From positions 65,665,932 to 65,729,931 of the forward strand of contig NC_057722.1 in the NCBI RefSeq assembly GCF_004010195.1: a DNA stretch of 64,000 nt, written 5' to 3'. Position numbers and translations under genes: made by a program. The notes under the pieces were generated by a model. It did no database searches and had not been told where the DNA came from. It was given only the letters and a program-made list of their open reading frames with translations. This DNA comes from Chiloscyllium plagiosum (Eukaryota). Shown here piece after piece: positions 4,776 through 63,133 of this stretch. Position 1 is the stretch's first letter. Each line of letters starts with the position of its first letter.

Positions 4776-7700
4776 ATTTGGAGATGCCGGTGTTGGACTG
4801 GGGTGCACAAAGTTAAAAATCACACAACACCAGGTTATAGTCCAACAGGTTTAATTGGAAGTACAAGCTTTTGGAGCACTGCTCCTTTATCAGGTGGTTG
4901 TCGAGTACACCATTGTAAAATACAGAATTTATAGCAAAAGTTTACAGTATGATGCAACTGAAATTGTACATTGAAAAATACCTTGATTGTTTGTTAAGTC
5001 TCTCATCTGTTAGAATGACCCTGTTAGTTTTACTTCTTTCATATGTAAATCACAAATTAAAAAAAATACATTCTCAACTGAACTTTAACAATTGGTGTCA
5101 GCCGAGATAATGTATTGAAGGTGTTAGCACCCCTGTGTTCTGCTGTCTGTGCCATAATGTTTAGGCTGATTCTAATCCAAAAAATGAATTAACAGAATCT
5201 TACATGGATTCATGCAATTTTTGAGCAAAGTGTAATGTAACTCTGTAAGTACAAATTCACCCCACAAAGTTACATGTGTTTGTGTGCATGTGTGTGTGTT
5301 TGGGGGGGGGGGGGGGGGGGTGGTGGTGGTTGTGGTTGTGAATGCCTGTGACAGAATGCATATGTGTGTGTGCCTGAGTGTAAAGGGGTATAAGTTGGTG
5401 AGAGGGTACACGTGGGAGTGTGGTACTGTGAGTGTCTGTAGGAGTGCCTGTGTGTGTGTGTGTGTTTGGGAGTGTCTGTGTGTGTGTGTGTATAGTGTAA
5501 TGGGATCACCTGTAACGTGACATGAACCCAAGATCTCAGATGAGGCCATCTCCGTGGGTACCGAAATTAGCTATCAGCCTCTGCTCAGCCACGTTTCGCT
5601 GCTGCATGTCCCGAAGTCCGCCTTGAAGCATGGTCACCCAAAGGTCCGAGGCCAAATGTCCCAGACCGCTGAAGTGTTCTCTAACTGGGAGGGAACACTC
5701 CTGTCTGTTGATTGTTATGCCCATTCATCCATTGCCATGGCCTGTGCTCCGTTTCACCAATGTACCATGCCCCAGGACATTCTTGCCTGCTGCGTATGAG
5801 ATAGACAATGTTGGCTGAGTCGCATGAGTACCTGCCACGTACATGGTGGGAAGTGTCCCCATGCATAATGGTGGTATCCATGTCCACACTCTAACACGTC
5901 TTGCAGTGTCTACAGTGGCAGCATTGTATGGAGTTGTCCTGAAAGCTTGGCAGTGTTTGAGGTTTGGTGATTGTTTAAAAGCAAGGAGTGGAGATGTGGG
6001 GAAGGTCTTGACGAGGTTCTCATCCTCATTGATAATATTTGCAGGTTGTGAAGAACATGGCATAGTTTTTTAGCTCCTGGGAAGTACTGGCCATGAAGGG
6101 TACCCTGTCAGTTGCAGCACGTGTCTGTCTCCTGAGGAGACCATTATGGTTCCTTGTTGTGGTTCATTGGAACCGGCAGTCGATGAGTTGAGCATTGTAT
6201 CCCATTCTCATGAAGGCATCCTTGAATACTTCCAGGTGCCCATCACGTTCCTCCTCATCTGAACAGATCCTGTGTATGCATAGGGCTTGTCCTTAGGGGA
6301 TGGCTGTTTTAATATGTTTTGAGTGGAAACTGGAGAAGTGTAGCATTGTAAGGTTATCCGTGGGTTTGCAGTAGAGTGAGGTGCTGAGGTGTCCATCCTT
6401 GATGGAGATGCATGTGTCCAAGAATGAGACAGACAGTCGAGAGTAGGCCATGGTGAGTTTGATGGTGGGATGAAACTTGTTGATATCACTATGTAGTTTT
6501 ATCAGTGACTCCTCACCATGGGTCCAGAGGAAGAAAATGTTGTCAATATACCTGATGTATAGTGTTGGTTGGAGGTCCTACGTAGAGAAGAAGTCTTGTT
6601 CAAACATGTGCATGAAAATGTTTGCCTATTGGGTGCAAATTTTGGCCTCATGACTGTTCCATGTGTCTGGATGAAGAACTGGTTGTCAAAAGTAAGACAT
6701 TGTGCTCGCGGATAAAGCAAATGAGTTGTAGGACGATGCTCGGAGATTGGCAGTTGTTGGTGTTGAGTACTGAGGCTGTTGGCATGATGCTGTCATCATG
6801 GCGGATGCTGGTGTAGAGTGCTGAAACGTCCATTGTGATGAGGAATGTTCCCAGTTTGACTGGTGCATGTGTCTGAGTTTCTGTAAGAAATCTGTAGTGT
6901 CGCGACAGAAGCTGGGGATCTCCTGTACATTGGGTTTCAAGATGCCTTTGACATAGTGAGAGTGGTTCTCACACAGAGTCCTATTGCCTGATATGATGGG
7001 ACGTCCTGGTGTGTTGGCTTTGTGTATCTTCAGAAGTCACCTATGCAAGAAGTATGTGGGATGAGGGCGCATAGGGAACACTGAAGGACTGGATCCAAAG
7101 TCCTGATCAATGTGTTTAGTTCACAGGCATGCTCTTTGGTCGGATCAACCGGTACTTGTTTGTAATGTTCCTGATTGTTCAGTTGTTGGTACAATTCCTT
7201 GCAGTAATCCTTTCTATTCTGAATGATGATGGCTCTTCCTTTATCTGCTGGTTTGATGACAATGTTGAGAGCATGGATGGCATTGTATTGTGATTGGGTG
7301 ATGTTCTGCTCTACCTTATGGTACAGCTGATGAATCTGGCATTTATATACTTCCTGATGATTTGAGCATACATGTCAAGCCCAGGGCAGTGGCCCTCCGA
7401 TGGCGTCCAAGTTGATGCTTCCTGTGAGCGCTTCTCTATGAATCCCTGCGATGACTGTTCTGGTTCATTGGTACACTAATTGGGATCACTGCTGGCATCT
7501 TGAAAGAATTCCCGGAGTCTCATTTGTCTGATGAATTCCACTGTGACTGCTGCAAGAACCATGGGGTCCATTTTGGTGGTGGGGGAGAAATTAAGACCTC
7601 TGCTCAGGACTTCAATCTCTTCCGGTTGAAGGGTGTGGTCTGATAAGTTGACAATTGACTAGCCAACAGTGATAACGTTATTCACTGTGGTTCCAGGGTG

Positions 7701-8630
7701 GGCTTCTCTACTACTGGAGAAAATGTCAAGTTTCTTCAGTTTTTTGTTCTTGCTGTGCATGTACATGGTGTAGTTTTGTCACCTTGTCTGTTTGGCAATA
7801 TCACATAATTGTACTGCTGTATCCTGAGTGCAGGTTGAGAGTGTGGATTCTATCTGAATTTCAAGGTTGTGGAGTCTGCTATAGAGTTGATGCATGAGAT
7901 GATTGAGGAGTTTGAGAAAGGTGTGGTGGCTACGTTTCTGCATAGTCTGTGTTGTAGGTCGACTTGAGCAGGTTCATGATCGGTAAACCTACAGACACAC
8001 ACACTCCCACACTCACACATGTACCCTCTCCCAGACTTATACCCCTTTACACTCACACATGCATATATACACTCTATCACAGGTACTCACAACAACAATC
8101 AATCCTCACCCCACACCCTGCCCCCTCCCCCCACAACCCCACATGCACCAATACAAATCTAAGTTTTTGAGATGAATTTGTACTTGCAGCATTACATTAT
8201 ATTTTGCTCAAAAACTGCATGAATCCATGTAAGTTTCTGTTAATTCATTTTTTAGATTGGTATCAGTCTAAACATTATGGCACAGACAGCATCATACAGT
8301 GGTGCTAACACCTTCAATACATTATCTGGGCTGACACCAATTGTTAAAGTTCATTTGAGAATGTAACTTTTTTAAAAAAAATTGTGATTTACATATGAAA
8401 GAACTGAAACTAACATGGCCAGTCTAACAGATGAGAGACGTAATAAACAATCAAGGTACTTTTCAATGTATAGTTTCAGTTACATCACACTGTAAACTTT
8501 TGGCATAAATTCTATGCCTTACAATGGTGAACTCGACAACCACCTGATGACAGAGCAGTGCTCCAAAAGCTAGTGCTTCCAATTAAACCTGTTGGACTAA
8601 ATCCTGGTATTGCGTGATTTTTAACTTCCT
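4776..8630 (-). mobile_element. Penelope-like retroelement (decayed RT plus GIY-YIG endonuclease) with inverted pseudo-LTRs
   Basis: Minus-strand motifs: KPADKGRAIII (about 7220-7255), MDVSALYTSI, QTHGTVM, RYIDNIF (about 6535-6555), and GIY-YIG-like NIVYLIR...WYIGET. Inverted repeats at about 4810-5442 and 7987-8627. Flanking direct repeat ATTTTGTAATG at 4765-4775 and 8631-8641. Confidence 0.9.
5275..5492. repeat. (GT)n-rich low-complexity tract with a G run, inside the PLE pLTR
   Basis: Seen directly; mirrored as (CA)n at about 7990-8150. Confidence 0.9.
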
Positions 8631-10981
8631 ATTTTGTAATGCAGCCTCAATTATGTCAGACATTCGAGGGCCTCCTGGCGCAATGGCTATACATCTGTGT
8701 TTGAATCTGTCTGATCCATGTGTTTCCCACATGGATACCCATGATATGATTGTGTTTTATGAACTGTAGGAACGGGAGCTTGTTATAATTAATAATAGCC
8801 ACATTTACAGATCAAAGCATGTAATTGAATTGCTTTGATATTCAATCCAAGCTCGACAACTATCCGATGGCTACTAACCTCCGTCGTCAACTCTATCAAA
8901 CCTTTTTAGCCTGCTCCTATAGTCTTTGTTGCATTGCCATTTGAAAGAGGACCTTCAGAGTGATATTCTTATTACTGGTCTAGACATTGGAAAATACGAC
9001 ACGAAATTTAGGAACTTACAGTCGTTCAGAGTTACAATGATAAAATTACGTAATCATATAATTTTACAGCACAAATGAAGGCCATTCCACCCATCATGCT
9101 TATAGTGACTCCCAGAAGACATATCTCGCTTGTCTCACTATCCAGTTCTATGTCTGTAACGCTCCAAATTCATCACTTCCAAACAATTTGTCCAGTTTTC
9201 CAAGAATCTGCCTTCTCCACTGTCTCAGACAGTGCATTCCAACTCCCAGTAACTCTCCAAGGAAAGATGTTTCTCCGCATCACACTCCTAAACGTCTTGC
9301 TAAATATCTTGAATTTGTGCCCCTTTGTTTTTTCATTTGTTCTAGGGATGTGGGAATTCCTGGCCAACATTTGTTGCCAATCCCCAATTCCTTGTGCATG
9401 GAATGTACTTCCTACATCGTCTCAGAGGACAGGTATGAACCATTTTGCTGTGGTTTTGAAGTTGCATGCAGGCCATAAAGTGTAAAGATGGTAGATTTCC
9501 TTCCCTAAAGGACATGACTGAAAAAACCGAGTACTTTTTATGATCAACAATGATTTAAAAGAAACGATTACAGTAGCTTTTATTTCCAGATTTCTTTTTC
9601 TGTTTAATTTCACCATCTGATGTGATGAAATTTGAACCCAACAGGTCAGACCATCAGCCTGACTTTTAAGCTCCGTTGAAGAGAAAAGTGTGAGTATGAT
9701 TGTTCAATATGTTAATTCCAATTTAAGATTACTTTTTCAGAGTTGGAGAAACATTTGTATTGTATTAAATATTAAAGAGGAGAGTTTGACAGCTCACAAG
9801 GTTTTACTTGGTCATCCATTTTATAGCTCTGGTCTAAGTGTTAAATGTTTTGTTTCACCTTGAAATTTCTGTGGACATTCTGCATTATTACATTCACTTC
9901 GAGAAGCATCTGGTAAAATGACAAGACTAATTACTTTTTTTCTGTAACCGTGTACTATTTTGTTTTGTGGTGAATAGCTGATTGTGGTGTTGGATACCAA
10001 TATACTTAATGCCAGGAGATCACTGCAGTAATCTCATAAGCTAGCTTCCTAGACCCAATCATATTCACCTACTTTATCATTGACCACTCTTTTATTAGAA
10101 GTTAGGAAGTGGAGGGTGCTCTAATGATCACAGCACCATCCACAACTCGGCAGATACTGGAACACCTCAAGTTAAAAAGCAAGACCAGGACAACATGAAG
10201 AGTTAGGCTGATAACTAGCAGTTAACAATGGGCACTTGTCGAAGACAATAGCTGTCTCCATCAAGAAATAATCCAAAGAGTTCTTTTTGATAGTTAATGA
10301 TTTGCAGAATCTATCCTCCACAGTACATCGCCTGACGCATACCATTGATCAGAAACCAAAAAGAGACAGACATGTTAGCTATGTGACCGCATATGTAGGT
10401 CAGAGGCTTGTAATTCTGTACTAACTCGCCTCTGTGCAACAACTGTCTACTATCGACAAGTCACAAATTGGGAGTGTAATGTCATATTCTCCACTTGCCT
10501 GGATGACTGTAGTTTCAAGAACACTTAAACGTCTTGACTCTTCCCAGGATAAAACAGCTTGCTTGAACTCAATTGATAAGAATAGAGCAACATTTGTGTA
10601 TATTTTCTGGCAATTTACTATTTGCAACCTGGAAGAGAGTTGTAGTGAATGAGAGTGGGTTAAAAACAGCAAAGGTTACAGTTCTGTTCGGTTCTGTAGC
10701 AATAACAGGTTAGCAGTGAACTTTTGTTGACTTATAGAGACTGACTAAAAGCAGAAAGGATGAGAAATGTAGTCAGCAGGATTTCATTCCGGGTACGGAC
10801 ATTCTAAATTATTTTTCATCTACCACTCGGACCTGACCATCGATCAGCAACCTACTTGATTGACACCATACCATCAGTTTCAACATGCACTCCCTTAACC
10901 ACTGATGTCCACGAGCAATAGAGAACACCCTCTTCAAGGTGTACAGTAGCACCACTCCTCCTCTGCAGAATCTGATACTCT

Positions 10982-11269
10982 ATTAGATTACTTACAGTGC
11001 GGAAATAGGCCATTCGGCCCAAGTAGTCCACACAGACCTTCCGAAGAGTAACCCACCCAGACCCATTCCCACTAACTAATGCACCTAACTCTCCGGGCAA
11101 ATTAGCATGATCAATTCACCTAACCTGCACATCTTTGGGTTGTGGGAGGAAACCCACGCAGACACGGGGAGAATGTGCAGACTCCACACAAACTCCAAGG
11201 CTGGAATCGAACCCAGGTCCCCAGCACTATGAGTGCAGTAGTGCTAACCACTGAGCCACCGTGCCGCCC
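10982..11269 (-). mobile_element. V-SINE (HE1-like)
   Basis: Same head, V domain and tail as the 42369 copy. Confidence 0.85.
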
Positions 11270-12349
11270 TTTACAGCTTAACGGGACAAAGACAACAGAT
11301 GCTTGTAAAATACCAGGCCCACAAGTTTCGTTGCAACAGTGCTGATTGGCTGACCAATTCTGATTGACTGACGCATTTTCACCATAATAGAAATTATGAT
11401 GGGCAATTTGAACAAGGCGCAAGGCTTAAATACATTTTATTTTCATGTATACATTGTATATAGTTAAGTAAAGCTTTTAGCAATCAGAAATAAGCACCTT
11501 CAGTGGCTGTTTTGGTACATTAAAGTGTGCCTATCTCTGAACCAGAAAACGTGAGTTCAACTCCCATCCAATCGCTAATAACATCTCTGAGCAGGATTAC
11601 TAGAAAATATTTAAGTGAGCACTTTATCAACTCAACCATAACGATCTTAAACTCGTCAAGATTATTCAGCAATTGCTGCCTAATAACCAAATCACATCTT
11701 ATAGTGGTCATTGCGTACTCACATTAAAATATAATAATTATTTCAGGGCTGAAGGCTGAACCCTGTCAGTGAAACATTACACTCACAAAGCCACTGCATA
11801 GTAGCAGCATTAAACAGCTTGATTAACCTGCCGTGCAATTGGTTGAGATAATTTGTTCATGTAAATAATTTGAAATAGACCGGACAGTCTTCAAATCTCG
11901 AATTTGGCACATGTTCGAGCTTGTCTTTGTACAAGGAACAATGATTTGACCCGAATTAACAATGCCTCACAGAAGATGAGGACAGCTTAAGGGAGATGAA
12001 GATGCTGTTGTCGTTCCTAGCAATTGTGTTGCACTTCTTGTTTTGTGGTCCTGAATCCCACTGGTGAATACACTTCAAATTTTCAACTGAAAAACCACTT
12101 CAGAGATCTTAAGATACATTGACCTGCAAATGTTTGGACTTTGGGAGGAAACTAGAGCACCCACAGGAAACAGATGCAGACACGGGGAAAATGTGCAAAC
12201 TCCACAAAGGCAGTCGCCTGAGGTTGGAATCGATCCCAGGTCCCTGACAGCAGTGCTAACCACACTGCGCCTCAACTGGATTGAAGGTACACAGATGCCT
12301 ATGTTTGCAATTATTTTCTTCATGAGTCTCATGTTGACTAAACTGGTAA

Positions 12350-12460
12350 GGTGTGTTCCTTAGGGACTAGCCAAGTAATTTATTGATATTCAACAGAGAT
12401 TGAAATTGATTAAGCACTCATTGATTAAGCACACAAAAATAGCGACTTCTTTTTATAAAA
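12350..12460 (+). promoter_or_regulatory. Putative proximal promoter of gene B
   Basis: TATAAAA at 12454-12460, about 55 bp before the ATG. The block TTCCTTAGGGACTAGCCAAGTAATTTATTGATATTCAACAGAGATTGAAAT is strongly conserved with 62768-62820 upstream of gene E. Confidence 0.6.
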
Positions 12461-12513
12461 AGTCAGTCAACCATCCTACTGTCAGCCGAGGACAATTTCT
12501 TGTCCTATCGATA

Positions 12514-12728
12514 ATGCATTATTGGTTCCTTTTAGTGCTGAATTCAGCCGCCGCCCTGACATTGTCCAGTAATGAGCAGGTTTGCAAACGTTGGGGTAAG
12601 TTTGATTTACTGGGCTTGTCGAAGAATGGAGATATCACGTTGGGTGGAATTTTTGGGATGCGTTCTTACCACGTAGAGCAGCGACACCTCTCATTCAGCA
12701 TTCACCCGGAGCCGGCAAAATGCCTCAG
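12514..12728 (+). CDS. V2R/OlfC gene B exon 1 (signal peptide and start of the Venus flytrap domain)
   Basis: ATG at 12514 gives MHYWFLLVLNSAAALTLSS...GDITLGGIFG...AKCL. Phase-2 donor AG|GTTGGT at 12729. Length 215 bp, the same as gene E exon 1. TATA box upstream. Confidence 0.88.
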
Positions 12729-13052
12729 GTTGGTGAGTTTGTTTAATAAAATGGAAAACATCTGTCCTCATGTTGCTTCCCATGTTTACATGATCACAGT
12801 CTGAATTACTTTGTGAATTTCAAGTAAAAGAAAATTGTCAACTTTATTTTGCGACTTGCCCCAAAGTGTGTAATAACCAATCAGGTACTTTTGCAATTCA
12901 GTTAATGTAATGGTAGCAATACAGCCATCACTGTCAGTACCGCCAGCTCCCACAATTAGTCTTGTGATCAAAACTCATGAACCTGTTTTAGCATTTTGGA
13001 ATGAGAGACAATTGTGAGAGCTCTCCTGCTGTTTTTCGAAGGCTTTCATTTT

Positions 13053-13395
13053 GGCAGCACGATGACTTAGTGGTTAGCACTGCTGCCTCACAGCACTAGG
13101 GACCTGGGTTCGAATCCAACCTTGGATGACTGTGTGGAGTTTGCATATTCTCCCTGTGGTTATGTGGGTTTCATTCGAGTGCTCCGATTTCCTCCCATAG
13201 TCCAGAGATATGTAGGTTAGGTGAATTGGCCATGCTCAATTCCCTTTAGTGTTCAGGGATGCTTAGATTAGGTGCATTAGCGAGGGGTAAGTGTAGAGTA
13301 ATGGGGTAGGGAAATGGATTTGGAGAGATACTCTTCAGAGGGTTGGTGTGGACTTGTTGGGATGAAGAGCCTGTTTCCCCAGTGTATGGAATCCA
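13053..13395 (+). mobile_element. V-SINE (HE1-like)
   Basis: A and B boxes (AGTGGTTAGC, GGGTTCGAATCC) and the V domain. Confidence 0.85.
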
Positions 13396-13884
13396 TGATT
13401 CTGCTAGAGGGATGATCTGGAATCCCATTAACATCTTATTTAAAAGTTAGCACATTGGCAGATCTTTGGTTAATGTCCATTAAGGTTTTCTGCTCAAGAC
13501 TCTTCTTTGGAACTTAGGTCCACCAATTCCCCATATATAGACAGTTATGTTACCACTGAAAAATAATTACGCAGTGGTCTGGTCGGATATAATGATTATC
13601 GTGTTATTTTAAAATCTTGAAGTTTTATGAAGTCTGGGACATACTGCATGCATAGTTTTCTACTCTGGTTGAAAACAATAGAGATTAGATGTTGTTGTTT
13701 CAACACGTGTATCCATTATTCGTGCACATGAGCAAAATATGTCTGTGGATATAATGTCTTTTCTTTCCAAATAAAAGCAAGATATGTGTTGGTGTTCATT
13801 GTGGGCAAAATTACAGAAAGCATTACACAGTCCGAAATTAATGCTGTCTGTCGTTGATCTGGAATTTTCTCTGTCAACAGGAGT

Positions 13885-14523
13885 ATAGAGTCATAGAGTC
13901 GTAGAGATGTATAGCACGGAAACAGACCCGTCGGTCCAACCCGTCCATGCCGACCAGTTATCCCAACTCAATCTAGTCCCACCTGCCAGCACCCTGCCCA
14001 TATTCCTCCAAACCTTTCCTATTCATATACCCATACAAATGTCTTTTAAATGTTGCAGTTGTGCCAGCCTCACCATTTCCTCTGGCAACTCATTCCATTA
14101 ACGTACCACCGTCTGTGTGAAAAGGTTGCCCCTTAGGTCTCTTTTATATCTTTCCCCTCTCACCTTAAACCTTTGCCCTCTAGTTCTGGACTTCCCCAAC
14201 CCAGGGAAAATACTTTTTCTATTTATCCTATCCATGCCCCTCACAATTTTATAAACCTCTATAAGGTCACCCTTCAGCCTCTGACGCTCCAGGGAAAACA
14301 GCCCCAGCCTGTTCAGCCTTCCTGTAGCTCAAATTCTCCAGCCCTGGCAACATCCTTGTAAATCTTTTCTGAACCCTTTCAAGTTTCACAACATCTTTCC
14401 GATAGGAAGGAGGCCAGAATTGCACGCAATATTCCAACAGTGGCCTAACCAATGTCCTGTACAACCGCAACATGACCTCCCAACTCCTGTACTCAATACT
14501 CTGACCGATAAAGGAAAGCATAC
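13885..14523 (-). mobile_element. CR1 LINE 3' end
   Basis: LYRTLVRPLLEYCVQFWPPSYRKD, with a (CTATGACT)n-type tail at the left edge. Confidence 0.9.
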
Positions 14524-15439
14524 CTAATCATTTTTTTGCTCACCAAAAGGATTGTTGTCTCCACCCATTGCTTTACTCACTCGCTATGGCATCAATAAAC
14601 AGTTGATCCTCGACCCTACTGCCACGCATCTGGGTTTTGCTGCCTCCTCTTCGAGTTTACGACAGCTCTGGATTACACACCAGCAGTCATACATGGTATC
14701 ATTCATCTCTGATATGCCCTCAATACGATATTAGCCAATGCCAGTTTCCATGACCAGCTTTACACTTTCATGCCTGTTTCAAGGAGCCATTCATTCTTGG
14801 TAATGCAGTGCTCAATTCTGACTGACGTGGCCCTCCTGGTGCAGCTGCTTTCGATCCCATTCAGGACATTTTTGTCAGAATGAGTCTAATTAATGAGTTT
14901 CTAACATGAATACTCGTGATGTGATTGCCATTTATGAAGTATTGGATATGAACTTATTATAATCAATACTACTAAGATTGATAGTTCAAATCAGGGAACT
15001 AAATTATTTGTGACATTCATTCCAGGTTCAGTAACTATCCAATAGCTGCTGACCTCCTCAATCAACTTGATTCATAACTTTTTTTCCTGGCCTGCTCATC
15101 TTTTCCTTAATACAGACAATTCTCTCCCATTGCATTGCAGTCTGAACGAGGACTTCCAGAGTGTTAAAATTAAACATTTGTAATACCCCTCCTCTGACTT
15201 TAACCATTTTTGCTCAGTTTCCCCGGCTAGGTGTCACTGCCAACGACACCTTTTTGCGCAAACCACAGGGTAGTTGTTGAAGTCCCTTTAACATACTTCA
15301 TGTGTCTTTGCACTCCCGCCTCATCCTCCGACCCGCACACATTTCTAGTCAGCTTTAGTTATGTCTGCTGCTAATTAGCTTCAGAAATTTGATTCTGCAG
15401 ATATGCTTCACCCAATTAAAAACTTTTTTCATTGGAGTG

Positions 15440-15830
15440 TGGGCCGCTGAGAGGTGACCTTTTAGAAGTTTATAAAATAATGAGGGATAAAGAAAACGTT
15501 AATGGTCGTTGGCTTTTCCTTCGGGTGAGGTATTTCAAGATTAGGGGGCACATTTTTAAGGTGAGAGGAGAAAGATTTTAAAAACGACATACCGGGCATC
15601 TTTTGCACACTGAGCATGGTGATCATGTGTGATGGATATCCTTAGGAAATGTGTGATGTGGGCACAATTACAACATTTGTAAGACATTTGGATAAGTACA
15701 TTCGAATAAGAAAGGTTTGGAGTAATAAGGAACAGGAGCAGGCAGGTGGGACTAATGTAGTTTGGGATTATATTCGGCATGGACTTGTTGGACTGAAGGT
15801 TTTGTTTTTGTGTTCTATGTCTTGACTTTA
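15440..15830 (+). mobile_element. CR1 LINE 3' end (decayed)
   Basis: GCTGAGAGGTGACCTTTTAGAAGTTTATAAAATAATGAG (LRGDL.EVYKIM) followed by the 3' UTR. Confidence 0.75.
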
Positions 15831-17859
15831 TACTGAATTTCATTGTTAGAATTTACTCTCTTTAGGAGAAGTTCAGACATAGAAGCCAGGAGGCTATACT
15901 CAAGCTTCATTAAAACTAATCAGGTCTCACTTAGAATGCCACCAAGACTGTCAATATTATTGACAAAAAAATAATGAGAGATTGCGATCATTTCTGTTCC
16001 ATAACTTCTGGAATTCACCTATGCCTAGTTAATCATGGAAGATCAGAAGTTAATGTCAGGGATTACACGGTTCCCGACATTTGGCATTGATTCCCGACTT
16101 TCCCATCCACTCACAATCAAGTAGAATTTGCTTAACTGACAAAAACCTTTTATTTTTCACTATTTGACTCTTTGAGAAAAAAAATTGCAAATATTTGTGA
16201 TTTGTTGAATAATGTGTAACAGTACTTCTGATTTACACTACTTTGATAATGAATGCTGCAATAAACTCTGAAAAACTGAACTTGTATATGCCACATATCA
16301 AATTTTACCAAATGACAAAGTTATGTTTTTGTGAAGGAACATTTGTAAAGTAATTTCCCTCTTGATTTTATATTTTATACTTCAATCTCACATGCGTTTC
16401 TAAATCATTTGTTTTGACCTTGATCAAGTTTCAATTTCTAGTTAAAACAAATAAATATGTTTTAGTTTTATGCTTGCTGTCAGCGAACATGCTACAATGT
16501 GGTTGACCAATGATCTTGCTTGATTATATCTCTATTGTTTGACAACTAGTGATCCCAATGCCTTGGCAACAGTTTCAAGCTGACGTTTGGAAGAGGAAAT
16601 TCCATGCGACAAAGGTCACCATAAATTTGTGGAGCTCGATATCTGGCACATCCATAGTTACAATGGGATGAATGGCTTTCATTACAGCTGCCATTTCATG
16701 GCTCTAGTAAATGATCATGCAAGAAAGACTCAATTGGTTTTCTGGTTTTTATGCTGTTAGCTGTGACTCAGAAGTTTGTGAGTTTGCATTCCAATCCAGA
16801 TTATTGAACCCTTATTTGAAACTGCTATTTCAGTGCATTATATTTCCCATTTGTCCAATGAAATGCAATTGTTTCACCAATTAAAGTAAAGGATCTTATT
16901 GTAGCATTTGAAAAAATATGTAGGTGGGACAATGCAGTAGGAGGCGGTATTGATCACCACAAGAGCAACTCTTAGCAACAGGAACTATCTACTCGCACAG
17001 CATCAGCTCATGCCACTGGCCTTTGTTTCATTGATCTCACTGAAGACTTCCCGCTTTCCAGTTAAGTGCCTAAATAGCACTAAACATTATGGGTCTTCTC
17101 TAAATCATGCATGCGATACGAAAAGCTGCGGGGCCTTCCTCAAAGCTAATATAGGATAACATCCACTCAAGGTCTCACCAAGCCGACCTTGTACTCGCCC
17201 CGTCAGGGTGTTTTGCAAGTTCCCAGGGGCAAGAGTATACACAAAAGTTATTGATGGACCGCACATCAGAAGTGCAAAATCCACACAGATATGACCTCCT
17301 CCGCTCATCCACCTCACCTTTCCCCTCTGATTTGCTGCTGACTTTGCTGCTGTTTCCTCACTAGCTCCACATCCCCACCATCAGTCACCTTTATTTGGAC
17401 CCATGTTGATCCTGGGTCTGTGGTCAGTGTAATACTTGCATCAACCACTCACTGTTGGAAGTGCTTCAATGAAGAATATACCATCTCCATCTGTTTCACG
17501 TAGGATCCATAGGAAGGAGGACCCTCTTTCTCACTCCTCCTTGATCATGGGAAAGATTAATTTGCTAATTGACTGCAAGTTGACATGCATTCTTTCCCAG
17601 AAGGAACCAATCTTTACCATCTGTCGAACAGACCATTACCTCCATTAAATGTCACCTTAAGTGTGAGGAACCATCTTGCCATGCTGACAAAATAGCAATT
17701 CAATAAAGTATATTATTCTTGCTTTCAATGTAGTCTGCTGTTCTATTTAATGCATTGGCCAGTGTTGTTTTAATTTACTTATTTGCTTGCTCTTTGCACG
17801 TATGGTTTTTAGAAACTTGAGTTATACTTTTGCTTCTGGCCTATTTCTAATTAAGACAA

Positions 17860-19600
17860 TATGTCACAGGAACAGAAGTAGGCCACGCGGCCATTGATTC
17901 TGCTTCTCCATTCAATTAGGTCATGCCTGATTTTATAATCTCAATTACATTTTCTTCCCTTTCCTCCAAAATACTTGATTCCTCATTGATTAAATAACTG
18001 TTTTTTCTCTGTCCTGACTGTAATGATTGACTGAGCATCAACAGTCACCTATGGGAACCTCTGAGAATAAATGTTTCCTCTTCTCTGTCTTAACTATCTG
18101 GCCCCATATTCAGAAAATTGTTGTTCTGGTCCTAGACACTTCCACAATGGGAAGCAACCTTATTGCTGCTTTTCTGTGAAAACCCCTAAAAGTCTTGGAT
18201 ATTTCAATAATTTTTGTTCTCATACATTTGTATTCCAGTGAGTACAGTGCCAATCCACTCAATCTCTACTCATAAGACAACTCCTCCATACCTGATACTG
18301 GCAAATGAATGTTCTCTGCACTGCCTCCAAAACTAGTTTATGATTCCTTAGATAAGGGTCCAATATTCCATTTCCTTCTGTAGTACCCATTGAACTTGCA
18401 CATTAGCTTTTTAAGATTCATGATTAAGGACTCCCATATCCCTCTGTTATGCAGATTTCTGTCGTCTTTCGCCATTGAAATCATGTTAAACTTCTGAATA
18501 TTTCCTGCTAAAATGCACAACCTTACATTTTCACACATTATTCCATATGCCATTTTTTTTGCACACTCACTTAACCTGTCAGTATCCTTCTGCAGACTCC
18601 TTGTCTTATCCTCACCTCCTGCCTTTCCCACTATGTTTGCGTCATCCACAAACGTAGCTTTAGTATGTCACTCTGCAGGCCCAACTCATGAATATATTGC
18701 AAATAATCATCATCATGGTACTGACAACACTGCCACACCATTAGTTGTAGGCTGACATCATGAAAATACCCACTTCAAAGTTTGTGCGAAGATTTGTAGC
18801 TCGGGTGCTCGTTGTTGTGGTTCTGTTTGCCGAGCTGGGAATTTCTGGTGCAGACGTTTCGTCCCCTGTCTAGGTGACACCCTCAGTGCTTGGGAGCCTC
18901 CTGTGAAGTGCTTCTATGACCTTTCCTCTGGCATTTGTAGTGGTTTGAATTTGCCTTCCGGTTGTCAGTTCCAGCTGTCCGCTGCAGTGGTCGGTATATA
19001 GGGTCTAGGTCAATGTGCTTATTGATTGAATCTGTCGATGAGTGCCAAGCCTCTAGGAATTCCCTGGCTGTTCTCTGTTTGGCTTGGCCTATAATAGTAG
19101 TGTTGTCCCAGTCGAACCCTATATACCGACCACTGCAGCGGACAGCGGGAACTGACAACCGGAAGCGGCAGATTCAAACCACTACAAATGCCAGAGGAAA
19201 GATCACAGAAGCGCTTCACAGGAGGCTCCCAAGCACCGAGGATGTCACCTAGACAGGGGACGAAACGTCTGCACCAGGAATTCCCAGCTCGGCGAACAGA
19301 ACGACAACAAAATACCCACTTGTCTGAACTCTCTGTCTTTTATTAGTTATCCATTCCTCTATCAATGCCTTTATACTATCCCCAACAACATGGGCTCTTG
19401 TCCTATTAAGCAGTCTAAAGTAGAATCTCTCATCAAACACCTTCCCAAAATCCAAATGTATTATATTGACTGCTTCCCCTTTATCAATCATTCTTGTTAT
19501 CTCCACAAAGAATTGTACTAAATTTATCTGGCATGAATGCACTTCAGGAAGCTATATTGACTCTGCTTGATCATATTATGCATTTCTGAATGCACTGATA
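17860..19600 (-). mobile_element. Old CR1 LINE fragment, interrupted by the PLE at 18776
   Basis: Decayed RT: SCQINLVQFFVEIT...IHLDFGKVFD and FVDDANIVG. Confidence 0.75.
18776..19308 (-). mobile_element. 5'-truncated fold-back PLE (GIY-YIG C-terminus plus inverted pLTR)
   Basis: Minus strand reads FDWDNTTIIGQAKQRTAREFLEAWHS...INKHIDLDPIY. Arms about 18811-19003 and 19117-19308 are inverted. 13-bp TSD AAAATACCCACTT at 18763-18775 and 19309-19321. Inserted into a CR1 fragment. Confidence 0.88.
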
Positions 19601-20589
19601 TTGTGATTCTTGGATTAAATATTTGAGAATATAACAAAATTTGGTTTTTTGTGTTCACAGTCACTTGCAGATACAACCATAGAATTATAGAATCATACAG
19701 CTATAGAATTTTACAGTACAAAAGGAGGCCATTTGATTCATCATGCTTTTGCTGACTCCCAACAGAGCTAGCCAGCTATTCACTTTCTCCAGTCCTATCT
19801 CCATAGCCCACTGAATTCACCACTTTCAAGTGTATATCCAGCTCTCCTGGAATCTGCCTCCTCCATTCTTACAGGCAGCACATTCCAAATTCTAACAAAT
19901 CATGGAGTAAAGAAGTTTCTCCTCGTCACAGTTCTAGCTCTCATGCTGACAATATTAATACTGTGTCACTTTTTTGTTTTCTTTTGTTCTTGAGTATAAG
20001 CAGCAGTTGGTGCAAATCTCTAATTCTGTGTGAGCTAAATATACTAGCCATTCTATCTCAAAGGGCATGCATAAACCACATTGTTGTGGGTGTGGAGATG
20101 CATGTTGGCTATGCAGGATAAGGATAGTAGATTTCCTTCCCTAAAGGGTATTCCTGAAACAGCTGATTGTTTATGACGACCAGTGATGGTTTGATAGTCA
20201 CCATGACATTGGATTTTAATTCCAGATTTTTAAAAACAAATAAGTTTAACATTTAAAGCTATTACCTCAGAACATTACCTGGCTTCTAAGCTGCAAATAA
20301 GTAGAAAACTGTGAGAGTGATTGTGCAATATGTTAATTTCAATTTAAGAATGTGTTTCTCAAGTTGAGGAATTTTTGTCGGGTCATCAAAAATGAGTCTT
20401 CATCCAGCTCCTTAACCACTCTGCCCTGACCATAGATCAGCAGCCTGCCTGATTGGCACCCACCCAACACTTTCCACATGCACTTGGTTCACTCTTAATA
20501 TACAGGCACAACAGAGAACACTATTAACGAGATGCACCATAGCACTCTTTTGGCGCCGGCAAAATGCTTCAGGTTGGTGGGTACTATAA

Positions 20590-20700
20590 GATGTCGAGAG
20601 TGTGGTGCTGGGAAAGCACAGCAGGTCAGGCAGCATCCGAGGAGCAAGCGAATCAACGATTCGAGCTAAAGCCCTTCCTCAGTACTGAGGTCATTCCTTC
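20590..20700. mobile_element. One arm of the palindromic PLE-derived family seen at 31768 and 52940
   Basis: GTGGTGCTGGGAAAGCACAGCAGGTCAGGCAGCATCCGAGGAGC...AAAGCCCTTCCTCAG matches those left arms. Confidence 0.72.
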
Positions 20701-21059
20701 ATCCTCACTTATAAGATACTCCATTTGCGAATGAGAGATGTTTATCGGTTAAGGCGTTGTGAGAGCTCTCTTCCTTTTCTTCGAAATACTTCCCTCGGAC
20801 CTAAGGATGATCGTCGGGGATCCCTTTCATGTTTTCTTTGAAATCGTACACATAGTCAGGTCTTTGCTTAATATAAATTAAGATTTTGTGCTCAAGTCTC
20901 TGCGTTAGGATACGGATTCATCAAGTTTCAGCTTTGATTCAACGGTTGTACCACCAAATTATCGCAAATCATAGCTACGCTGTGGTCCTCTCTGATATAA
21001 TTGTATCATTGCTTTCCCTGTGTTTTTTTTTAAATCTTGTTTCTCCGCCTTCTCTGCAG

Positions 21060-21351
21060 CTTTCGGCTCAGGCCTTTCCGTTTTGCACTGGCGATGATTT
21101 TTGCAATCGAGGAAATAAACAATGACACAGCTCTGCTTCCCGGGGTCACTCTGGGATACCGCATATACGATTCTTGCAATTTGCTACAGTTATCGTTAAA
21201 AGCAGCTATGGATTTTCTAAACAGTCCAGAGGCAAACACATCCTCTGATAACTGTAAAAAGTCCTCCACTGTTTCTGCGATTGTTGCTGATGCTGGATCT
21301 ACAAAATCTTTAGCAATAGCACCTTCCATTGGTACCTTCAGAATCCCTATG
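21060..21351 (+). CDS. V2R/OlfC gene B exon 2
   Basis: Acceptor tctctgcag|, donor ATG|gtaaga, 292 bp. Encodes FRFALAMIFAIEEINNDTALLPGVTLGYRIYDSC...FRIPM. Confidence 0.93.
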
Positions 21352-22574
21352 GTAAGAAATGGCGTTTAACAAATCGGTTTGCAGAGTAAACAAATGTGAG
21401 TTAACTGTATATAATTTGATGTTCTGTGCGTCATATACTCCATTTCTACAAAATTCGTAACTCTTTTTGATGATCCAAACCAGACCAGAATCTTTATTTA
21501 TATTGCATTCAGGATGGTCAGACCATCCAGAAAAAATGCTGTTGTTCTGCTTAGCTTAAGTTTTCTAACCAGGTTATTATTTTTCTTCGAAGATGTTGCT
21601 TCAAAAGTCTCATTTCAGAAAACAGGTGATGAAAGGAAGCAAGTTATGATAATAGAACTTTTCAAAAATGATTACAAAAAAACTGGCAAATTCAGTTCGT
21701 TTTTATTCTTTCACGAGATGTGGGCAGTGCTGACAAAATCAATATTTGATTCCCTCCCCAGTAGCCCTGGAGATGAATCGCTTCCTTGATCACCTGCAAC
21801 CGACGTTAAGGGTGAAATATGCACAAAGTCTGTCCAGCAGCAAACGGCACCATCAATCGAATACTGAACTACAGAAAGCAAACATTACGTTATACACAGA
21901 AATAAGTCTAATTTAAACAATAAAGTGTCTCAGCATTGGCTTGCTGAGGGATGCGTAATTCATGTCTGAGACACAGTGAGCTCAATGTTGCTTCCAGAAG
22001 CCAGGTGAAATTTTTCAAAGCTGTAATTCATAACCTTGAATTATATTTTAAGAGAAGTATAATGCTGAACACGTTGCTAAAGATTTAAGGTGCTGGATGA
22101 AGAGGTATTTTAAGTTTGGGTGATGGTGTAAGAAAAATCATTTACAATTAGTCACATATCCAACACCTTTTCCTTTCCATCCATTGACTTCAATGGGAAG
22201 GGACAAATGGCGAGATCGACTATGAACTCTCAATACCATGTTGTGCAAAGTTTGATTTATCCCCAAGTAACCTGTAGAAGCAGAGAGAAGCAGAATGTTC
22301 GACAATGTTCTTCATGTTGAACTGTGAGAACCGGATATTATGCGTGGTTGCAGCTAGGACAGAGTGAATCAAGAAAGCGCATTGCTTGGGTTGAACACTT
22401 AGAGCAAATATATGAAGTTATTTAGTAAGTTTTTTATGCCTTAAAATGGACAGCTCCTGAAAGTAAGAAACGAGTTGGAATCTTTGCTCTTCTCAGCCGA
22501 TATCCACGCGCTGAGATCATGAATAACCACATGTTGCGTTCAAAATGCAAATGTTTCCACTTTACTTTTAACAG

Positions 22575-23408
22575 GTTAGCTACTTTTCCACCTGTGCGTG
22601 CCTGAGCAATAGAAAGGAATATCCGTCATTTTTTCGAACAATACCAAGTGATTACTATCAGGCTAGAGCATTAGCCCAGTTGGTGAAACATTTTGGATGG
22701 ACCTGGATTGGGACAGTTAAGGGCGACGATGACTATGGAAACTTTGGAATGCAAGCATTTGAAGAGGCCGTTCAACAGTTAGGTGTTTGTATAGCTTTTT
22801 CCGAGTCGTTTCATAAAACATACACTCGCGAGAAGTTACTGAAAACAGTTAACACCATCAAATTATCTTCTACAAAAGTTGTCGTTGCTTTTGTGGGAGT
22901 ATCAAGTATGGGTGTCCTTCTAAAAGAAATGATTGAACAAAATGTCAGCGGTATACAATGGATCGGAAGTGAATCATGGGTTTCCATGTCTCTTCTTCCT
23001 CCGGAGGAAAGTAAAAAGATTGCTTCTGGGGCAATTGGAATTGCAATTCGCAAAGTCGGTATACCAGGGTTGAGGGAGTTCTTGATGAAAGTTCATCCAT
23101 CTTTGTATCCAGGGAACATCTTGGTGAAAAAGTTTTGGGAAAGTTGTTTCGGCTGCACTCTAAGTGCTGGGAATACATTAGATTCTCGAAAACCTGGATC
23201 AGAACTTAAGGAATGCACAGGACAAGAAAATTTACAGAATGTCCAAAATGAATTTACTGATGTGTCGCAGTACAGAGTGACTTACAAGGTGTACAAAGCA
23301 ACTTATGCGATAGCTCATGCACTTCATAATATGGCGTCATGTAAAACTGGGTCAGGGCCTTTCTCCAATGGGAGTTGTGCAAATATTTCAAATTTTCAAC
23401 CATGGCAG
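22575..23408 (+). CDS. V2R/OlfC gene B exon 3
   Basis: Acceptor ttttaacag|, donor CAG|gtgagg, 834 bp open. Encodes [46 protein letters not shown] and [12 protein letters not shown]. Confidence 0.95.
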
Positions 23409-23522
23409 GTGAGGAACATTTAAACTTATTTGATGACTGCATTTACATACCAATGTGGTCGAATTCACGGTTGTTTATTTACAAACAATGTAAACATGCT
23501 CTATGTTTTCCTTTATTTGAAG

Positions 23523-23750
23523 TTATTATATTACATGAGAACTGTGAAGTTCGTAACTAAGATGGGAGAAAAGGTTTATTTTGATGAAAACGGAGACCCT
23601 GTCGCAACATATGATATTGTAAACTGGCAACCAAATGCCCTCGGTAACATTGACATTGTAAATGTTGGACGCTATGATGGAGCAGCTCGTTCTGGAGAAG
23701 AATTTTCGATAATAGAAGAGGCAATTGTTTGGAGTGGTGGTCAGAAGTCG
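23523..23750 (+). CDS. V2R/OlfC gene B exon 4
   Basis: Acceptor tttgaag|, donor |gtaaga, 228 bp. Encodes LLYYMRTVKF...FDENGDPVATYDIVNWQ...IVWSGGQKS. Confidence 0.93.
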
Positions 23751-25194
23751 GTAAGATTGATGTAGAACTGTCTCTTTTAAAGCACGGTTGGATTTCTTAA
23801 TTTCAATTTCGGTACTCTGAAATGAAAAAAAAGAAATGATGTTTACAACAAATAAGTGGCCCAACCACAACTGCCCATTTCCTGACTCTGAGTAAAATTG
23901 CAATACATCAGCCATTTTAAAATGGAAAAATTCTGCTCACCGATTCGAAGATCACTTAGTTGGATCAACCCAGAATATACGATCTGAGACATGTTTCATT
24001 TTCCCCCACTTCAACAACAGATTACGTTTAGCCATAAATGATACATTTAACATGACAAGAAAGTAAGGGACTGCTGCTTAAGAACTAGAATTATAAATAT
24101 CATTATATTTTAAATGTCACTTAATGAACAAATGGATGCGTAAAAAAGTATAAAAACTAAGCATACCAAAACGTCAGTGCATAGGTTTTAAAAAATCATC
24201 AGAGAACAATGGATCCATTAATTTGATGTCAAGGGGCATTATAGTTTATATCAATTTTGGTCACAAAAGCATTTGTGCTACCCAGGTGCCAAACAATGAC
24301 TATCGTCAACGAATGGGGTTCTACTAATTTCCACGTTATATTCAGCAGCATCAGAGTCACTTATACCCCTCTATCAATATATCGGGAGATACCTGAGATA
24401 CCTGAGAAACTGAATTGGACTAGCCATGTAAGTTCTATAACTGTAAGAGCAGTTCAGACGCCAGGATACCTGCAGCAGATAACTCGCCTCTGGACTTCCC
24501 AAAACCTAACCACAGACAGGGGGCAGGACTGTGACGAAATACTCCCACTCACCTGAAAGTGTACTCATACGTTCCTACATGCGTGCAAATTCAGCAACTC
24601 TCAAGCAGCTTGACACCATCCAAGAAAAAGCAGCTCACTTGATTGTCACTGCAACCCAAACATTCTTTTCCCCTACAAGCAATACTCAGTTGGAGCATCT
24701 GCAAAATACAGTGCCGAAATTAAACAATGTGCTTTAGAATGCACAATCCAATCCCTCGACCACTTCCACCTAAATGAACATTGGGACGCCACCATCTGCA
24801 TGTTCCCCTGCCAGCCGCTCCCCATCCTGACTTGGAAATATGTCATTTCCTTCAGTTCCTCTGGGTCAATCAAAATGCTGTAACTTACTCGCTTGTGACA
24901 TTGTGGGCATGACTTCAGCAAACAGAATGTGACAGTTCAAGATGGCAACACAAAGACAACTGGGGTGGGCAATAAACTCTGGCCTGGCCTGCAATGCCCA
25001 CATCGCATGAATGAATTAACAAAATGATTTTTACTTATGAATCTCATTTTCATTTTAGACAGTATTCAGTATCACTACAAAATACATTTGATTTTATTTA
25101 CTACATTAGCAATTTCCTTTTTAAATGATAGATGAAACTAGTTGAAGAACACATCATGGATGCTATAATGTGAATCTGGATTGACTATAAATAA

Positions 25195-25630
25195 AACATA
25201 GAAAACTACAGCACAGAACAGGCCCTTTGGCCCACGCTGTTGTGCCAAGATTTAATCCTAATATAAAATATAGTAACTTAACCTATGCACCCCTCAACTC
25301 ACTGCTATGCATTTGCATGTCCAGCAGTCGCTTAAATGTCCCCAATGACTCTGCTTCCACCACCACAGCTGGCAACGCATTCCATGCATTCACAATTATC
25401 TGCGTAAAGAACCTACCTCTGACGTCTCCTTTATACCCTCCTCCTAATATCTTCAAACTATGACTTCTCGTACCAGTCAATCCTGCCCTGGGGAAAAGTC
25501 TCTGGCTATTGACTCTATCTATTCCTCTCATTATTTTGTACACCTCTATCAGGTCTCCTCTCTTCCTCCTTCTCTCCAGAGAGAAAAGTCCGAGCCTATT
25601 CAACCTTTCTTCGTAAGGCAAGGCCTCCAG
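25195..25630 (-). mobile_element. CR1 LINE 3' end in gene B intron 4
   Basis: YEERLNRLGLFSLERRRKRGDLIEVYKIMRG. Confidence 0.9.
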
Positions 25631-25844
25631 GCAATGTTCCGCTTCTGCCAATGCAAGTCTATCCCCAGCACTTTTACAGCAGCTTTAAGCTGGACATCAT
25701 GAGGTCACAAACTGTCAGGTTATTTTAAAAAAGGATGGCACGAATGAATGTAACACAAATACCTATTCCCCTGTAAATCAGACTGAATGATATGCATTTG
25801 CTATTTGAAATTACTAGCACCATTGCATTTATCTTCCTAATCAG

Positions 25845-25968
25845 GTTCCTAAAGCTGTTTGTTCTCAAAGTTGCCATCATGGAACAAGGAAAGCAGGAAG
25901 AAAAGGACAACCCATTTGTTGTTTTGATTGCATTCAATGTGCACAGGGTGAAATTAGTAACACAACTG
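25845..25968 (+). CDS. V2R/OlfC gene B exon 5 (cysteine-rich domain)
   Basis: 124-bp exon with aatcag| and |gtaaga. Encodes VPKAVCSQSCHHGTRKAGRKGQPICCFDCIQCAQGEISNTT. Not shown in this frame by the ORF track. Confidence 0.93.
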
Positions 25969-26084
25969 GTAAGAAAGCATCATTGTCTGTACCAAAAGTG
26001 TGTCTGTACAAATTTCATGCCAGCATTGCAACAGGGGTGCTAACATTTATCCTTTAATGACCAAATCTTCTGTTGCTTTTTCAG

Positions 26085-27016
26085 ATTCCGTTCATTGCAT
26101 AAAATGTCCATTGGAATTCAAATCTAATGAACGACGGGATCAATGCATTCCAAAGGATATTGAGTTTCTTTCCTTTTTTGAGACATTGGGAATCATTCTG
26201 GTGACACTGGCGCTGTTTGGAGCCTGCACCGCTGTTGGTGTGTGTGCAATATTCTATGTGTACAGATGTACTCCGATTGTTAAAGCTAATAACTCTGAGT
26301 TAAGTTTCCTTCTTCTTTTTGCCCTGACACTTTGTTTTCTGTGTTCAATTACATTCATTGGGGAACCTTCAGTTTGGTCTTGTATGCTCTGCCACGTAGC
26401 GTTTGGTATTAGTTTTGTTCTTTGCATTTCTTGTGTATTGAGTAAAACAATCGTTGTGGTGATGGCGTTCAAAGCAACGCTGCCTGGCAATAATATGATG
26501 AAGTGGTTTGGACCAAGACAGCAACGGCTGGTGGTTTACATCCTCACACTGGTGCAATGTGCAATATGTACTACCTGGCTAATTGTATTTCCACCTTATC
26601 CATTGAAAAACACTAGTCACTCTAATGAGATAATCGTGTTTGAATGCAACGTAGGGTCTTCTTTAGCCTTCTACAGTGTACTCGGTTATATTGGATTTCT
26701 CTCCTGCGTGTGTTTTGTGGTAGCTTTTCTCGCTCGAAAACTTCCAGATAACTTCAATGAAGCGAAACACATAACGTTTAGCATGCTTATCTTTTGTGCA
26801 GTTTGGATAACTTTCATTCCAGCTTACATAAGTTCGCCAGGGAAATATGCTGTGGCGGTTGAAGTGTTTGCTATTTTGGCTTCCAGCTTTGGTCTACTAA
26901 TTTGCATTTTTGTTCCAAAATGTTATATTATTCTGTTGAAGAAAGAAAACAACACAAAAAGTTGCATAATGGGCTCAGTGTTTTCCAAAAAAAGCTTTGA
27001 AAATGTTCATAAATGA
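26085..27016 (+). CDS. V2R/OlfC gene B exon 6 (7TM)
   Basis: Acceptor tttttcag|, then DSVHCIKCP...[13 protein letters not shown]...NFNEAK to TGA at 27014-27016. The six exons total 2625 nt, i.e. 874 aa plus stop. Confidence 0.95.
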
Positions 27017-28189: not shown

Positions 28190-28312
28190 GACTTCACCTG
28201 ACGAAGGAGCAACGCTCCAGTAGCTTGTGATTTTGAATAAACCTGTTGAACTTTACCTCGTATTGTATGACTTTTGAATTTGTCCACCCCAGTCCAACAT
28301 CGGCTTTCCACA
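28190..28312 (+). mobile_element. Decayed PLE pLTR end
   Basis: Reverse-complement similarity to 4776-4890. CTGACGA-A-GGAGC-AAC-GCTCC is present but the GAAA is lost. Confidence 0.7.
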
Positions 28313-28350
28313 TTAAGGCTTAAAGATTCACTCAACTCTAAGATAAATAT

Positions 28351-62918: not shown

Positions 62919-63133
62919 ATGGATTATTGGTTCCTTTTAGTGGTGAATTCGGCTGTTGCCCTGGTATTGTCGAGTAAAGAGCGAGATTGCAAACATTGGG
63001 GTAGGTTTGATTTATTGGGCTTGTCGAAGGATGGAGATATCACGTTTGGTGGAATTTTTGACGTGCATTCTTACCAAGTTGAACATCAGCGCCTCTCATT
63101 CAGCCAACACCCGGAGACAGCAAAATGTCTCAG
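62919..63133 (+). CDS. V2R/OlfC gene E exon 1
   Basis: MDYWFLLVVNSAVALVLSS...GDITFGGIFDVHSY...AKCL. Donor AG|gttagt. 215 bp, paralogous to gene B exon 1. Confidence 0.92.

Follow-up and report, generated by a model that had tools for sequence, protein, structure and literature searches.

A mosaic V2R/OlfC-type receptor gene of Chiloscyllium plagiosum, probably spliced across a former intergenic spacer

A 64,000-nucleotide stretch of the Chiloscyllium plagiosum genome (NCBI RefSeq assembly GCF_004010195.1, contig NC_057722.1, positions 65,665,932 to 65,729,931 of the forward strand), referred to here as the window, is part of a tandem cluster of class C G protein-coupled receptor (GPCR) genes carried on one contig. 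One of these genes, gene B, is identified by comparison with its neighbors as a chimera of two paralog lineages, and is a real, old and selected mosaic receptor gene, most likely expressed via splicing over what was formerly intergenic spacer. It had originally been predicted that gene B was put together from two adjacent genes bearing complementary deletions, with B1 being the copy that retained the promoter and exon 1, and B2 the copy that contributed exon 2 and the sequence following it. While the chimeric nature of the gene is borne out by separate trees and by insertions and deletions (indels), the route by which it arose is revised here. Positions refer to the window and features lie on the forward (+) strand unless noted otherwise, while paralogs found outside the window are named according to their distance upstream in kb (P50 to P323).

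Results

Gene B and the contents of its first intron

Within 400 kb around the window, 14 genes of the gene B subfamily (gene B and 13 paralogs) were mapped exon by exon. A search with exon 1 yielded 16 matches, all on the window's contig, two of which (one degenerate copy and one weak distant match) were omitted from the gene set; P166, P216 and P279 were excluded from analyses of exons 5-6 because of gaps. As predicted earlier, the six exons of gene B (12514-12728, 21060-21351, 22575-23408, 23523-23750, 25845-25968 and 26085-27016) are joined at GT-AG borders into an uninterrupted frame of 874 codons. Given the predicted exon 1-exon 2 splice, this is a complete six-exon coding sequence in the sense of PMC2668830. 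The product contains Pfam domains ANF_receptor (PF01094), NCD3G (PF07562) and 7tm_3 (PF00003), each above cut-off, together with nine cysteines within residues 529-585 and seven hydrophobic segments within residues 601-841. In a protein tree that did not include CaSR, T1R and mGluR outgroups, B nests among the cluster paralogs, for which the database name is "calcium-sensing receptor-like". The nearest named relatives are bamboo-shark and carpet-shark proteins, the zebra-shark and whale-shark proteins included in this tree comprised no B ortholog, and a protein search with exon 1 returned no match closer than 76%. By its predicted exon structure and domain content, gene B is a six-exon V2R/OlfC-type receptor gene with an open frame.

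Intron 1 of gene B spans 8,331 bp, as compared to 344-910 bp in all 13 mapped paralogs, making it 9- to 24-fold longer. Intron 1 of gene E, the comparison copy (exon 1, intron 1 and exon 2 at 62919-64000, as assigned by exon mapping), is 580 bp long, such that both intron lengths given originally hold. Upstream of the intron lie the putative B1 proximal promoter and 5' untranslated region (12280-12513), seen as family-conserved blocks with a TATAAA at 12454 upon alignment with 13 paralog upstream regions, and B1 exon 1 (12514-12728), which comprises 71 codons, encodes a hydrophobic N-terminus, is of the 215-bp type and ends at the donor CAG|GTTGGT. This exon is nearest to those of P50 (87%), P143 (86%) and A (86%).

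The intron itself begins with B1 intron 1 of the long type (12729-13619), including a repeat resembling a short interspersed element (SINE) at 13053-13393. Alignment confirmed that this portion follows gene E and breaks off immediately ahead of the pyrimidine tract and AG. At junction 1 (13615-13625), where a 5-bp overlap (TCTTG) is possible, the sequence jumps into a 3'-flank block. This block opens a stretch that was once 3' flank and intergenic spacer and that is of the type found upstream of P216 and P166 (13622-20545). Repeat insertions are found at 13880-14530 and 15420-15830. A 500-bp inverted repeat at 18812-19310, which we take to be Penelope-like, is 83% self-identical, with copies showing 84-90% identity elsewhere in the cluster. 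The presence of former spacer between exons 1 and 2 was likewise confirmed by alignment, with blocks appearing on the same strand and in the order predicted (E-values 3e-14 to 2e-55). Specifically, 13639-13825 matches 55258-55439 (75.5%, E 8e-29), 13684-13825 matches 1724-1868, 14866-15089 matches 8691-8913, 14895-15166 matches 55611-55878, 19703-20349 matches 9056-9728, 20376-20545 matches 59431-59595 and 20722-21346 matches 63400-64000. Moreover, 15954-20298 aligns over 3.9 kb (73-76%) with the spacer that precedes P216, and includes a 4-kb block that neither the A-B nor the D-E spacer has.

The second jump, originally placed at about 20720, was instead located at 20537-20552 (junction 2), where the sequence enters a remnant of B2 exon 1 with a donor after position 20572 (junction and remnant, 20537-20572). 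The remnant (20541-20572; nhmmer E 0.023) is 90% identical over 42 bp to P242 and corresponds to the last ~25-30 bp of an exon 1, while 20593-20717 is a 125-bp repeat insertion flanked by an 8-bp target duplication. The second copy does not, therefore, start in the middle of intron 1 as had been thought, since a complete short-type B2 intron 1 is present (20573-21059; 362 bp once the 125-bp insertion is subtracted), although it does reach exon 2 with an intact acceptor. Similarly, the claim that neither a promoter nor an exon 1 intervenes holds for a promoter and a full exon 1, but not for the 3' remnant of exon 1. Indeed, when a promoter and exon 1 profile built from the 13 paralogs was run across the intron, only SINE matches and two weak hits (E 6 and 9) were obtained besides the remnant. 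Between 11000 and 21100, no full exon 1 other than that of B1 is present, and in the 9.5 kb upstream of exons 2-6 a full promoter with exon 1 is offered by B1 alone. No tandem repeats were detected in 11000-28420.

Two paralog lineages in one gene

Three paralogs, P242, P216 and P166, comprise a short-intron lineage, sharing a ~260-bp deletion in the 5' part of intron 1 and a 212-bp exon 1. This deletion is present in the B2 intron, whereas the B1 intron and the 215-bp B1 exon 1 are without these traits. In a tree of the shared intron part, B2 grouped with P242, P216 and P166 (support 100/98), and placement of B1 and B2 as sisters was rejected (approximately unbiased test, p-AU 5e-6). This bears on the possibility that gene B is no chimera at all but a single gene in which the upstream region and intron 1 were duplicated in tandem, with loss of the second exon 1. 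Such a duplication would yield junction 1 in a single event. It was, however, ruled out, given that the two intron copies are only ~72% alike, that they differ in the lineage-defining deletion and that their sisterhood was rejected, leaving it very improbable.

The short-lineage type continues through exons 2-4, which encode the ligand-binding domain, and introns 2-4 (21060-25844), as supported by trees and diagnostic sites. Exons 2-4 with their intron ends grouped with P242, P216 and P166 (100/99; placement in the long-intron group rejected, p-AU 3e-39), and intron 4 grouped with P216 and P166 (98/97; placement in the E group rejected, p-AU 1e-66). By contrast, exon 6 and the 3' flank grouped with E, P50, P323, P302 and P279 (98/98; short-lineage placement rejected, p-AU 1e-64). 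Diagnostic sites of the short and long types were found in ratios of 1:4 in the promoter and exon 1, 15:3 from exon 2 to intron 4, and 1:8 from exon 5 through the flank. The return to the E/P50/P302 type falls between ~25833 and 26261, such that exon 5 (cysteine-rich domain) and exon 6 (seven-transmembrane domain, 7TM), assigned by diagnostic sites, trees and Pfam (25845-27016), are followed by a 3' flank of that same type (27017-27747), in which homology breaks at 27747. Beyond gene B, colinearity with the sequence that follows gene E extends across genes C and F (27017-50921), and the two spacers A-B and D-E are likewise colinear with each other.

Because the 3' end is E-type and colinear and the intronic spacer is donor-type, gene B most likely began as the twin of gene E in a block duplication and later received a short-lineage unit. 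As such, the claim that B1 had lost exons 2-6 does not hold, with exon 6 and the 3' flank grouping with E, P50 and P302 and not with the source of exons 2-4. Nor does the picture of two intact neighbors with complementary deletions, as the 3' end is of B1 type and runs on into spacer like that between E and F, and the intronic spacer comes from the donor. More likely, a block of the short-intron lineage took the place of the middle of B1 or was inserted into it. With exon 6 and the 3' flank being of B1 type, the locus looks like the product of a ligand-domain transplant rather than of two simple neighbors.

The following history would account for this structure. To the block-duplicate twin of gene E would have been added a short-intron unit, consisting of a 3' flank, spacer, promoter and exons 1-4, with a homologous right join in exons 5-6. 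The acceptor of B1 and its exons 2-4/5 would have been removed at the non-homologous junction 1, either in the same event, as a one-sided replacement, or by later deletion; one-step replacement and insertion followed by deletion would lead to the same end state and are not separable. With a second deletion (junction 2), the promoter of the incoming unit and the greater part of its exon 1 would have been lost, leaving the B1 donor with one intact exon 2 acceptor downstream, in the same phase. The net result would be a gene that combines the promoter, signal peptide and 7TM of B1 with the ligand-binding domain of another lineage. We give an even chance to the most far-reaching reading, a natural ligand-domain transplant, in which an olfactory receptor gene would have retained its own promoter, signal peptide and 7TM exon, gained the ligand-binding exons of a distant paralog and made an entire intergenic spacer into an obligatory intron, its orphaned exon 1 persisting as an alternative first exon up to the loss of the incoming promoter.

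Alternatively, the unit may have left the locus as a DNA circle that was linearized at the flank and integrated again in permuted order, which would create the junctions at 13622 and 27747 in one step and would be compatible with a functional gene. In paralog coordinates, the flank breaks at 27747 some 60 bp short of where the intronic block starts, with no overlap, an arrangement with a post-hoc probability of arising by chance of roughly 3%. Against this, the block at 13622 is nearer to P242- and D-type flanks (73-74%) than to those of the E/P50/P302 type (65-68%) and carries, starting with its very first bases, a motif of the P242/P143 type; the flank that stops at 27747, by contrast, is of the E/P50/P302 type. 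A tree of the 13622 flank block gave no resolution. We consider the circle quite unlikely.

Both junctions are real and old

Runs X5, X11 and X15 represent three organisms that are 0.45%, 3.6% and 4.6% distant from the window, respectively. Junction 1 lies inside single contigs of X5 (13419-13913), X11 (13343-13909) and X15 (13211-13898). Junction 2 lies inside contigs of X5 (19822-20621) and X15 (19707-20626) and, in X11, is inferred from a contig spanning 20301 and 20485 and extending for another 136 bases. In addition, the ortholog model of C. punctatum, listed in the supplement of PMC10116579, starts with the same 41 bases (20532-20572), and that species therefore carries junction 2. Both junctions are thus real and, being bridged in organisms up to 4.6% apart, old. 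Assembly mis-joins, for which one could cite the gapped state of the assembly (17 N runs in 464 kb), were ruled out, as no gap falls inside the gene, contigs from three organisms' runs cross the junctions, and both junction fragments are single-copy in the window's assembly; this possibility retains next to no probability. The sole N run in the window (28424-28526; 103 bases) is found 1.4 kb beyond the stop codon of gene B.

Exons 2-6 are under selection

P0038, a protein from another assembly, is the ortholog of B (100/100) and is open over 791 amino acids. The two differ at 22 positions, as compared to 61 ± 7 expected under neutrality at 3.6%. Of five ortholog pairs shared with that assembly, B is the least diverged (2.5% vs. 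3.1, 3.1, 4.3 and 5.1%), and the two pairs broken in the window's species are the most diverged. The window lineage accounts for 7 of the 22 differences (11 with ambiguous ones included), as compared to a neutral expectation of 31 ± 5. Relative to the C. punctatum model, counting by eye gave ~34.5 synonymous differences over 560-670 sites and ~22.5 non-synonymous ones over 1736-1846 sites, i.e., a ratio of non-synonymous to synonymous rates (dN/dS) of 0.20-0.25, with 61% of differences being synonymous vs. 23-28% expected under neutrality. Terminal-branch omega, which includes time preceding the fusion, was 0.2-0.35 for exons 2-4 and 0.08-0.25 for exons 5-6. At 0.06-0.1 frameshifts per substitution (0.09 was measured), the probability of a neutral frame surviving over half of the cross-species distance is 0.05-0.9%, rising to 7-14% when indels are ignored.

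Because an ortholog carrying junction 2 shows a dN/dS of 0.20-0.25, exons 2-6 are, judging from these substitution patterns, under purifying selection since the loss of their own promoter. Promoterless exons under selection must be transcribed from elsewhere, and B1 provides the only full promoter nearby. Were gene B instead two pseudogene fragments or a recently dead gene, with its open frame reflecting chance or lag, one would point to the competing donor and poly(A) signals described below, to probable loss of the gene in one organism, and to the terminal-branch omega values, which on their own are compatible with a short neutral phase. Such a scenario is distinctly improbable in the face of the dN/dS between two species that both carry junction 2, the few changes in the window lineage and a survival probability below 1%, which leave room for a very recent death.

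Predicted splicing of B1 exon 1 to exon 2

Given the frame, the splice sites and the evidence for selection, exon 1 is predicted to be spliced to exon 2. Gene B is thus best read as a three-part mosaic in which transcripts from the B1 promoter would have B1 exon 1 joined, over an 8.3-kb intron consisting largely of former spacer, to ligand-binding exons 2-4 from another lineage, the likely outcome being a functional receptor of 874 amino acids. Class C receptors require a signal peptide. Splice matrices drawn from the cluster paralogs were uninformative, with the true acceptor ranking 1 of 449 when homologous sites were included and 58 of 449 when they were not. As a recursive AG|GT site, the donor retained after the exon 1 remnant ranked 315 of 449.

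Several observations weigh against the above reading. First, trees placed the B1 5' region outside the short lineage without rejecting its inclusion (p-AU 0.07 and 0.09), and trees of exon 1 alone lacked resolution; because trees alone fail to reject the short lineage, it is by indels that the B1 5' region is assigned to the long type. Other homologous mosaics also exist in the cluster, with intron 4 of P242 grouping with P143, P116, P90 and A, and the 3' flank of P216 with A. As homologous mosaicism is common, the B1-type 3' end is not unusual in itself; it is the non-homologous junctions 1 and 2 that distinguish B from the other cluster mosaics. The 7.2-kb intron 2 of P190 contains repeat insertions and a gap and no spacer blocks among matches of at least 200 bp. 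Omega for exon 1 was 0.65 (interval 0.25-1.4), affording too little power to show constraint. In one run guessed to be RNA (X20, tissue unknown), depth over exons 2-6 was zero or near zero and no 12728-21060 joint was among those listed, which we regard as neutral evidence. Alone among the 14 genes, B contains a second donor, TTG|GTGAGT, after 12732, i.e., 4 nucleotides downstream, that resembles the splice donor consensus and would shift the frame; an 18-bp deletion follows it. Premature transcript ends could result from seven AATAAA motifs and from the AG at junction 1, all within the intron; the density of the AATAAA motif (7 in 8.3 kb) matches that in other introns (13 in 20.3 kb), and the AATAAA at 13770 is found in only some paralog flanks. 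X11 contains a net 16 extra bases somewhere in 12300-13081 that were not placed.

Further counter-evidence comes from relatives. A contig of X15 (organism C) joins 21561-22240 (+) to 27598-26900 (-), with a 1-bp loss at 26987, pointing to a probable inversion of exons 3-6 in that organism; no inverted repeat longer than 13 bp was found near the inversion ends at 22240 and 27598. For Hemiscyllium ocellatum, the available part of the PMC10116579 supplement lists no B model between genes C and A. Because of the inversion and this missing model, gene B seems dispensable. Finally, the C. punctatum model takes the 41-bp remnant and not B1 exon 1 as its first exon. In the model placed at the coordinates of the window, exon 2 is instead preceded by B1 exon 1; both are Exonerate predictions (PMC10116579).

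The C. punctatum model also raises the prospect that exons 2-6 function with another first exon, be it the 41-bp remnant with an ATG at 20532 or an unrecognized upstream exon and promoter, leaving B1 exon 1 an orphan. The remnant provides an in-frame ATG and an intact donor, C. punctatum has the same 41 bases and they form part of its published model, and the omega interval of B1 exon 1 reaches beyond 1. Nonetheless, a product so initiated would be without a signal peptide and 58 N-terminal residues, the ATG, a chance one, opens a frame of just 13 codons and falls within a motif common to ordinary spacers, and zero differences in 41 bases are unremarkable at 3.6%. Moreover, no family promoter exists in the intron and the published model is an Exonerate prediction, not RNA. 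We therefore deem another first exon unlikely and retain splicing from B1 exon 1 as the preferred reading.

Other features of the cluster

The tandem block duplication comprises A'-B-C and D-E-F, with an edge at 50921/50922 and genes C and F being 79-86% alike over their best blocks. At this edge lies gene D (50922-53821), a 5'-truncated copy that begins inside exon 3 and that is, as originally described, decayed, containing 7 stops in 3 tblastn pieces. At least four further 5'-truncated remnants, consisting of exons 5-6 or exon 6 only, are found near -206, -154, -129 and -27 kb. Partially deleted copies are frequent here, and near -150 kb the cluster changes strand. In the A-B spacer, an inverted pair of ~640 bp (4810-5442 and 7988-8627; 85% alike) flanks a decayed reverse-transcriptase-like stretch. 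Database models P0036, P0122, P0125 and P0130 are 783-791 amino acids long, with P0036, the database protein of gene B, beginning at a methionine in exon 2, without the signal-peptide exon.

Discussion

Sharks have dynamic V2R/OlfC repertoires that are expressed in the nose (PMC10116579), and in the supplement of that paper gene B is listed as a complete six-exon, validated olfactory receptor model with the same exon 1-exon 2 join. Like the receptors considered in PMC10116579 and PMC2668830, B has six exons and three domains and resides in a tandem cluster with many pseudogenes; it differs in the 9- to 24-fold length of an intron 1 made of spacer and in its mosaic ancestry. In the available parts of PMC10116579 and its supplement, B is not described as chimeric but is catalogued as an ordinary V2R. 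Nothing on the origin of B or on a spacer-to-intron fusion in a V2R cluster was found in the literature searched, outside of which most subscription journals fall.

Chimeric duplicates formed from neighboring genes and trimmed by deletions include Sdic, Qtzl and the paenungulate HBB/HBD globin (PMC3449122; PMC3395120). Like Drosophila Sdic and Qtzl, B would be a new gene made from parts of adjacent duplicated genes and shaped by later deletions (PMC3449122; PMC3395120). Yet, Sdic and Qtzl fuse unrelated genes, with Sdic having built a new promoter and 5' exon, whereas the parts of B are paralogs. B also reuses a native promoter and splice sites and keeps the spacer as an intron. The paenungulate fusion globin resembles B in being a hybrid of tandem-cluster paralogs that became the working gene (PMC3449122). 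The exon 5-6 join of B is homologous, as in a Lepore-type hybrid, whereas junctions 1 and 2 are non-homologous and unlike it. Lepore-type, opsin and FCGR2C hybrids are all paralog hybrids in tandem clusters, and such homologous hybrids keep normal gene anatomy. The 5' join of B, on the other hand, is not a DNA crossover but a predicted splice that bridges 7 kb of spacer together with two non-homologous junctions. In read-through or conjoined transcripts, too, intergenic DNA is removed as an intron, with both parent genes staying complete. In B, B1 is without an exon 2 acceptor and B2 without a promoter, such that no product other than the read-through form would be made.

In birth-and-death models of chemoreceptor clusters, it is duplications and losses of whole genes that are counted. 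At the gene B locus, two defective parts have apparently re-formed one selected gene by splicing, with promoter and ligand-binding domain coming from different lineages. The reach of this finding is limited to one gene in one shark lineage, and one that was probably lost in a close relative. The mosaic structure explains why gene models of B disagree over exon 1. If B is indeed spliced as predicted, it would offer a clean natural test of whether the expression pattern of a V2R follows the promoter or the coding region, as well as a dated example of intergenic DNA turning into an intron. If the transplant reading is true, genes of this kind would go unnoticed in catalogues, passing for ordinary models with a long intron or a truncated 5' end.

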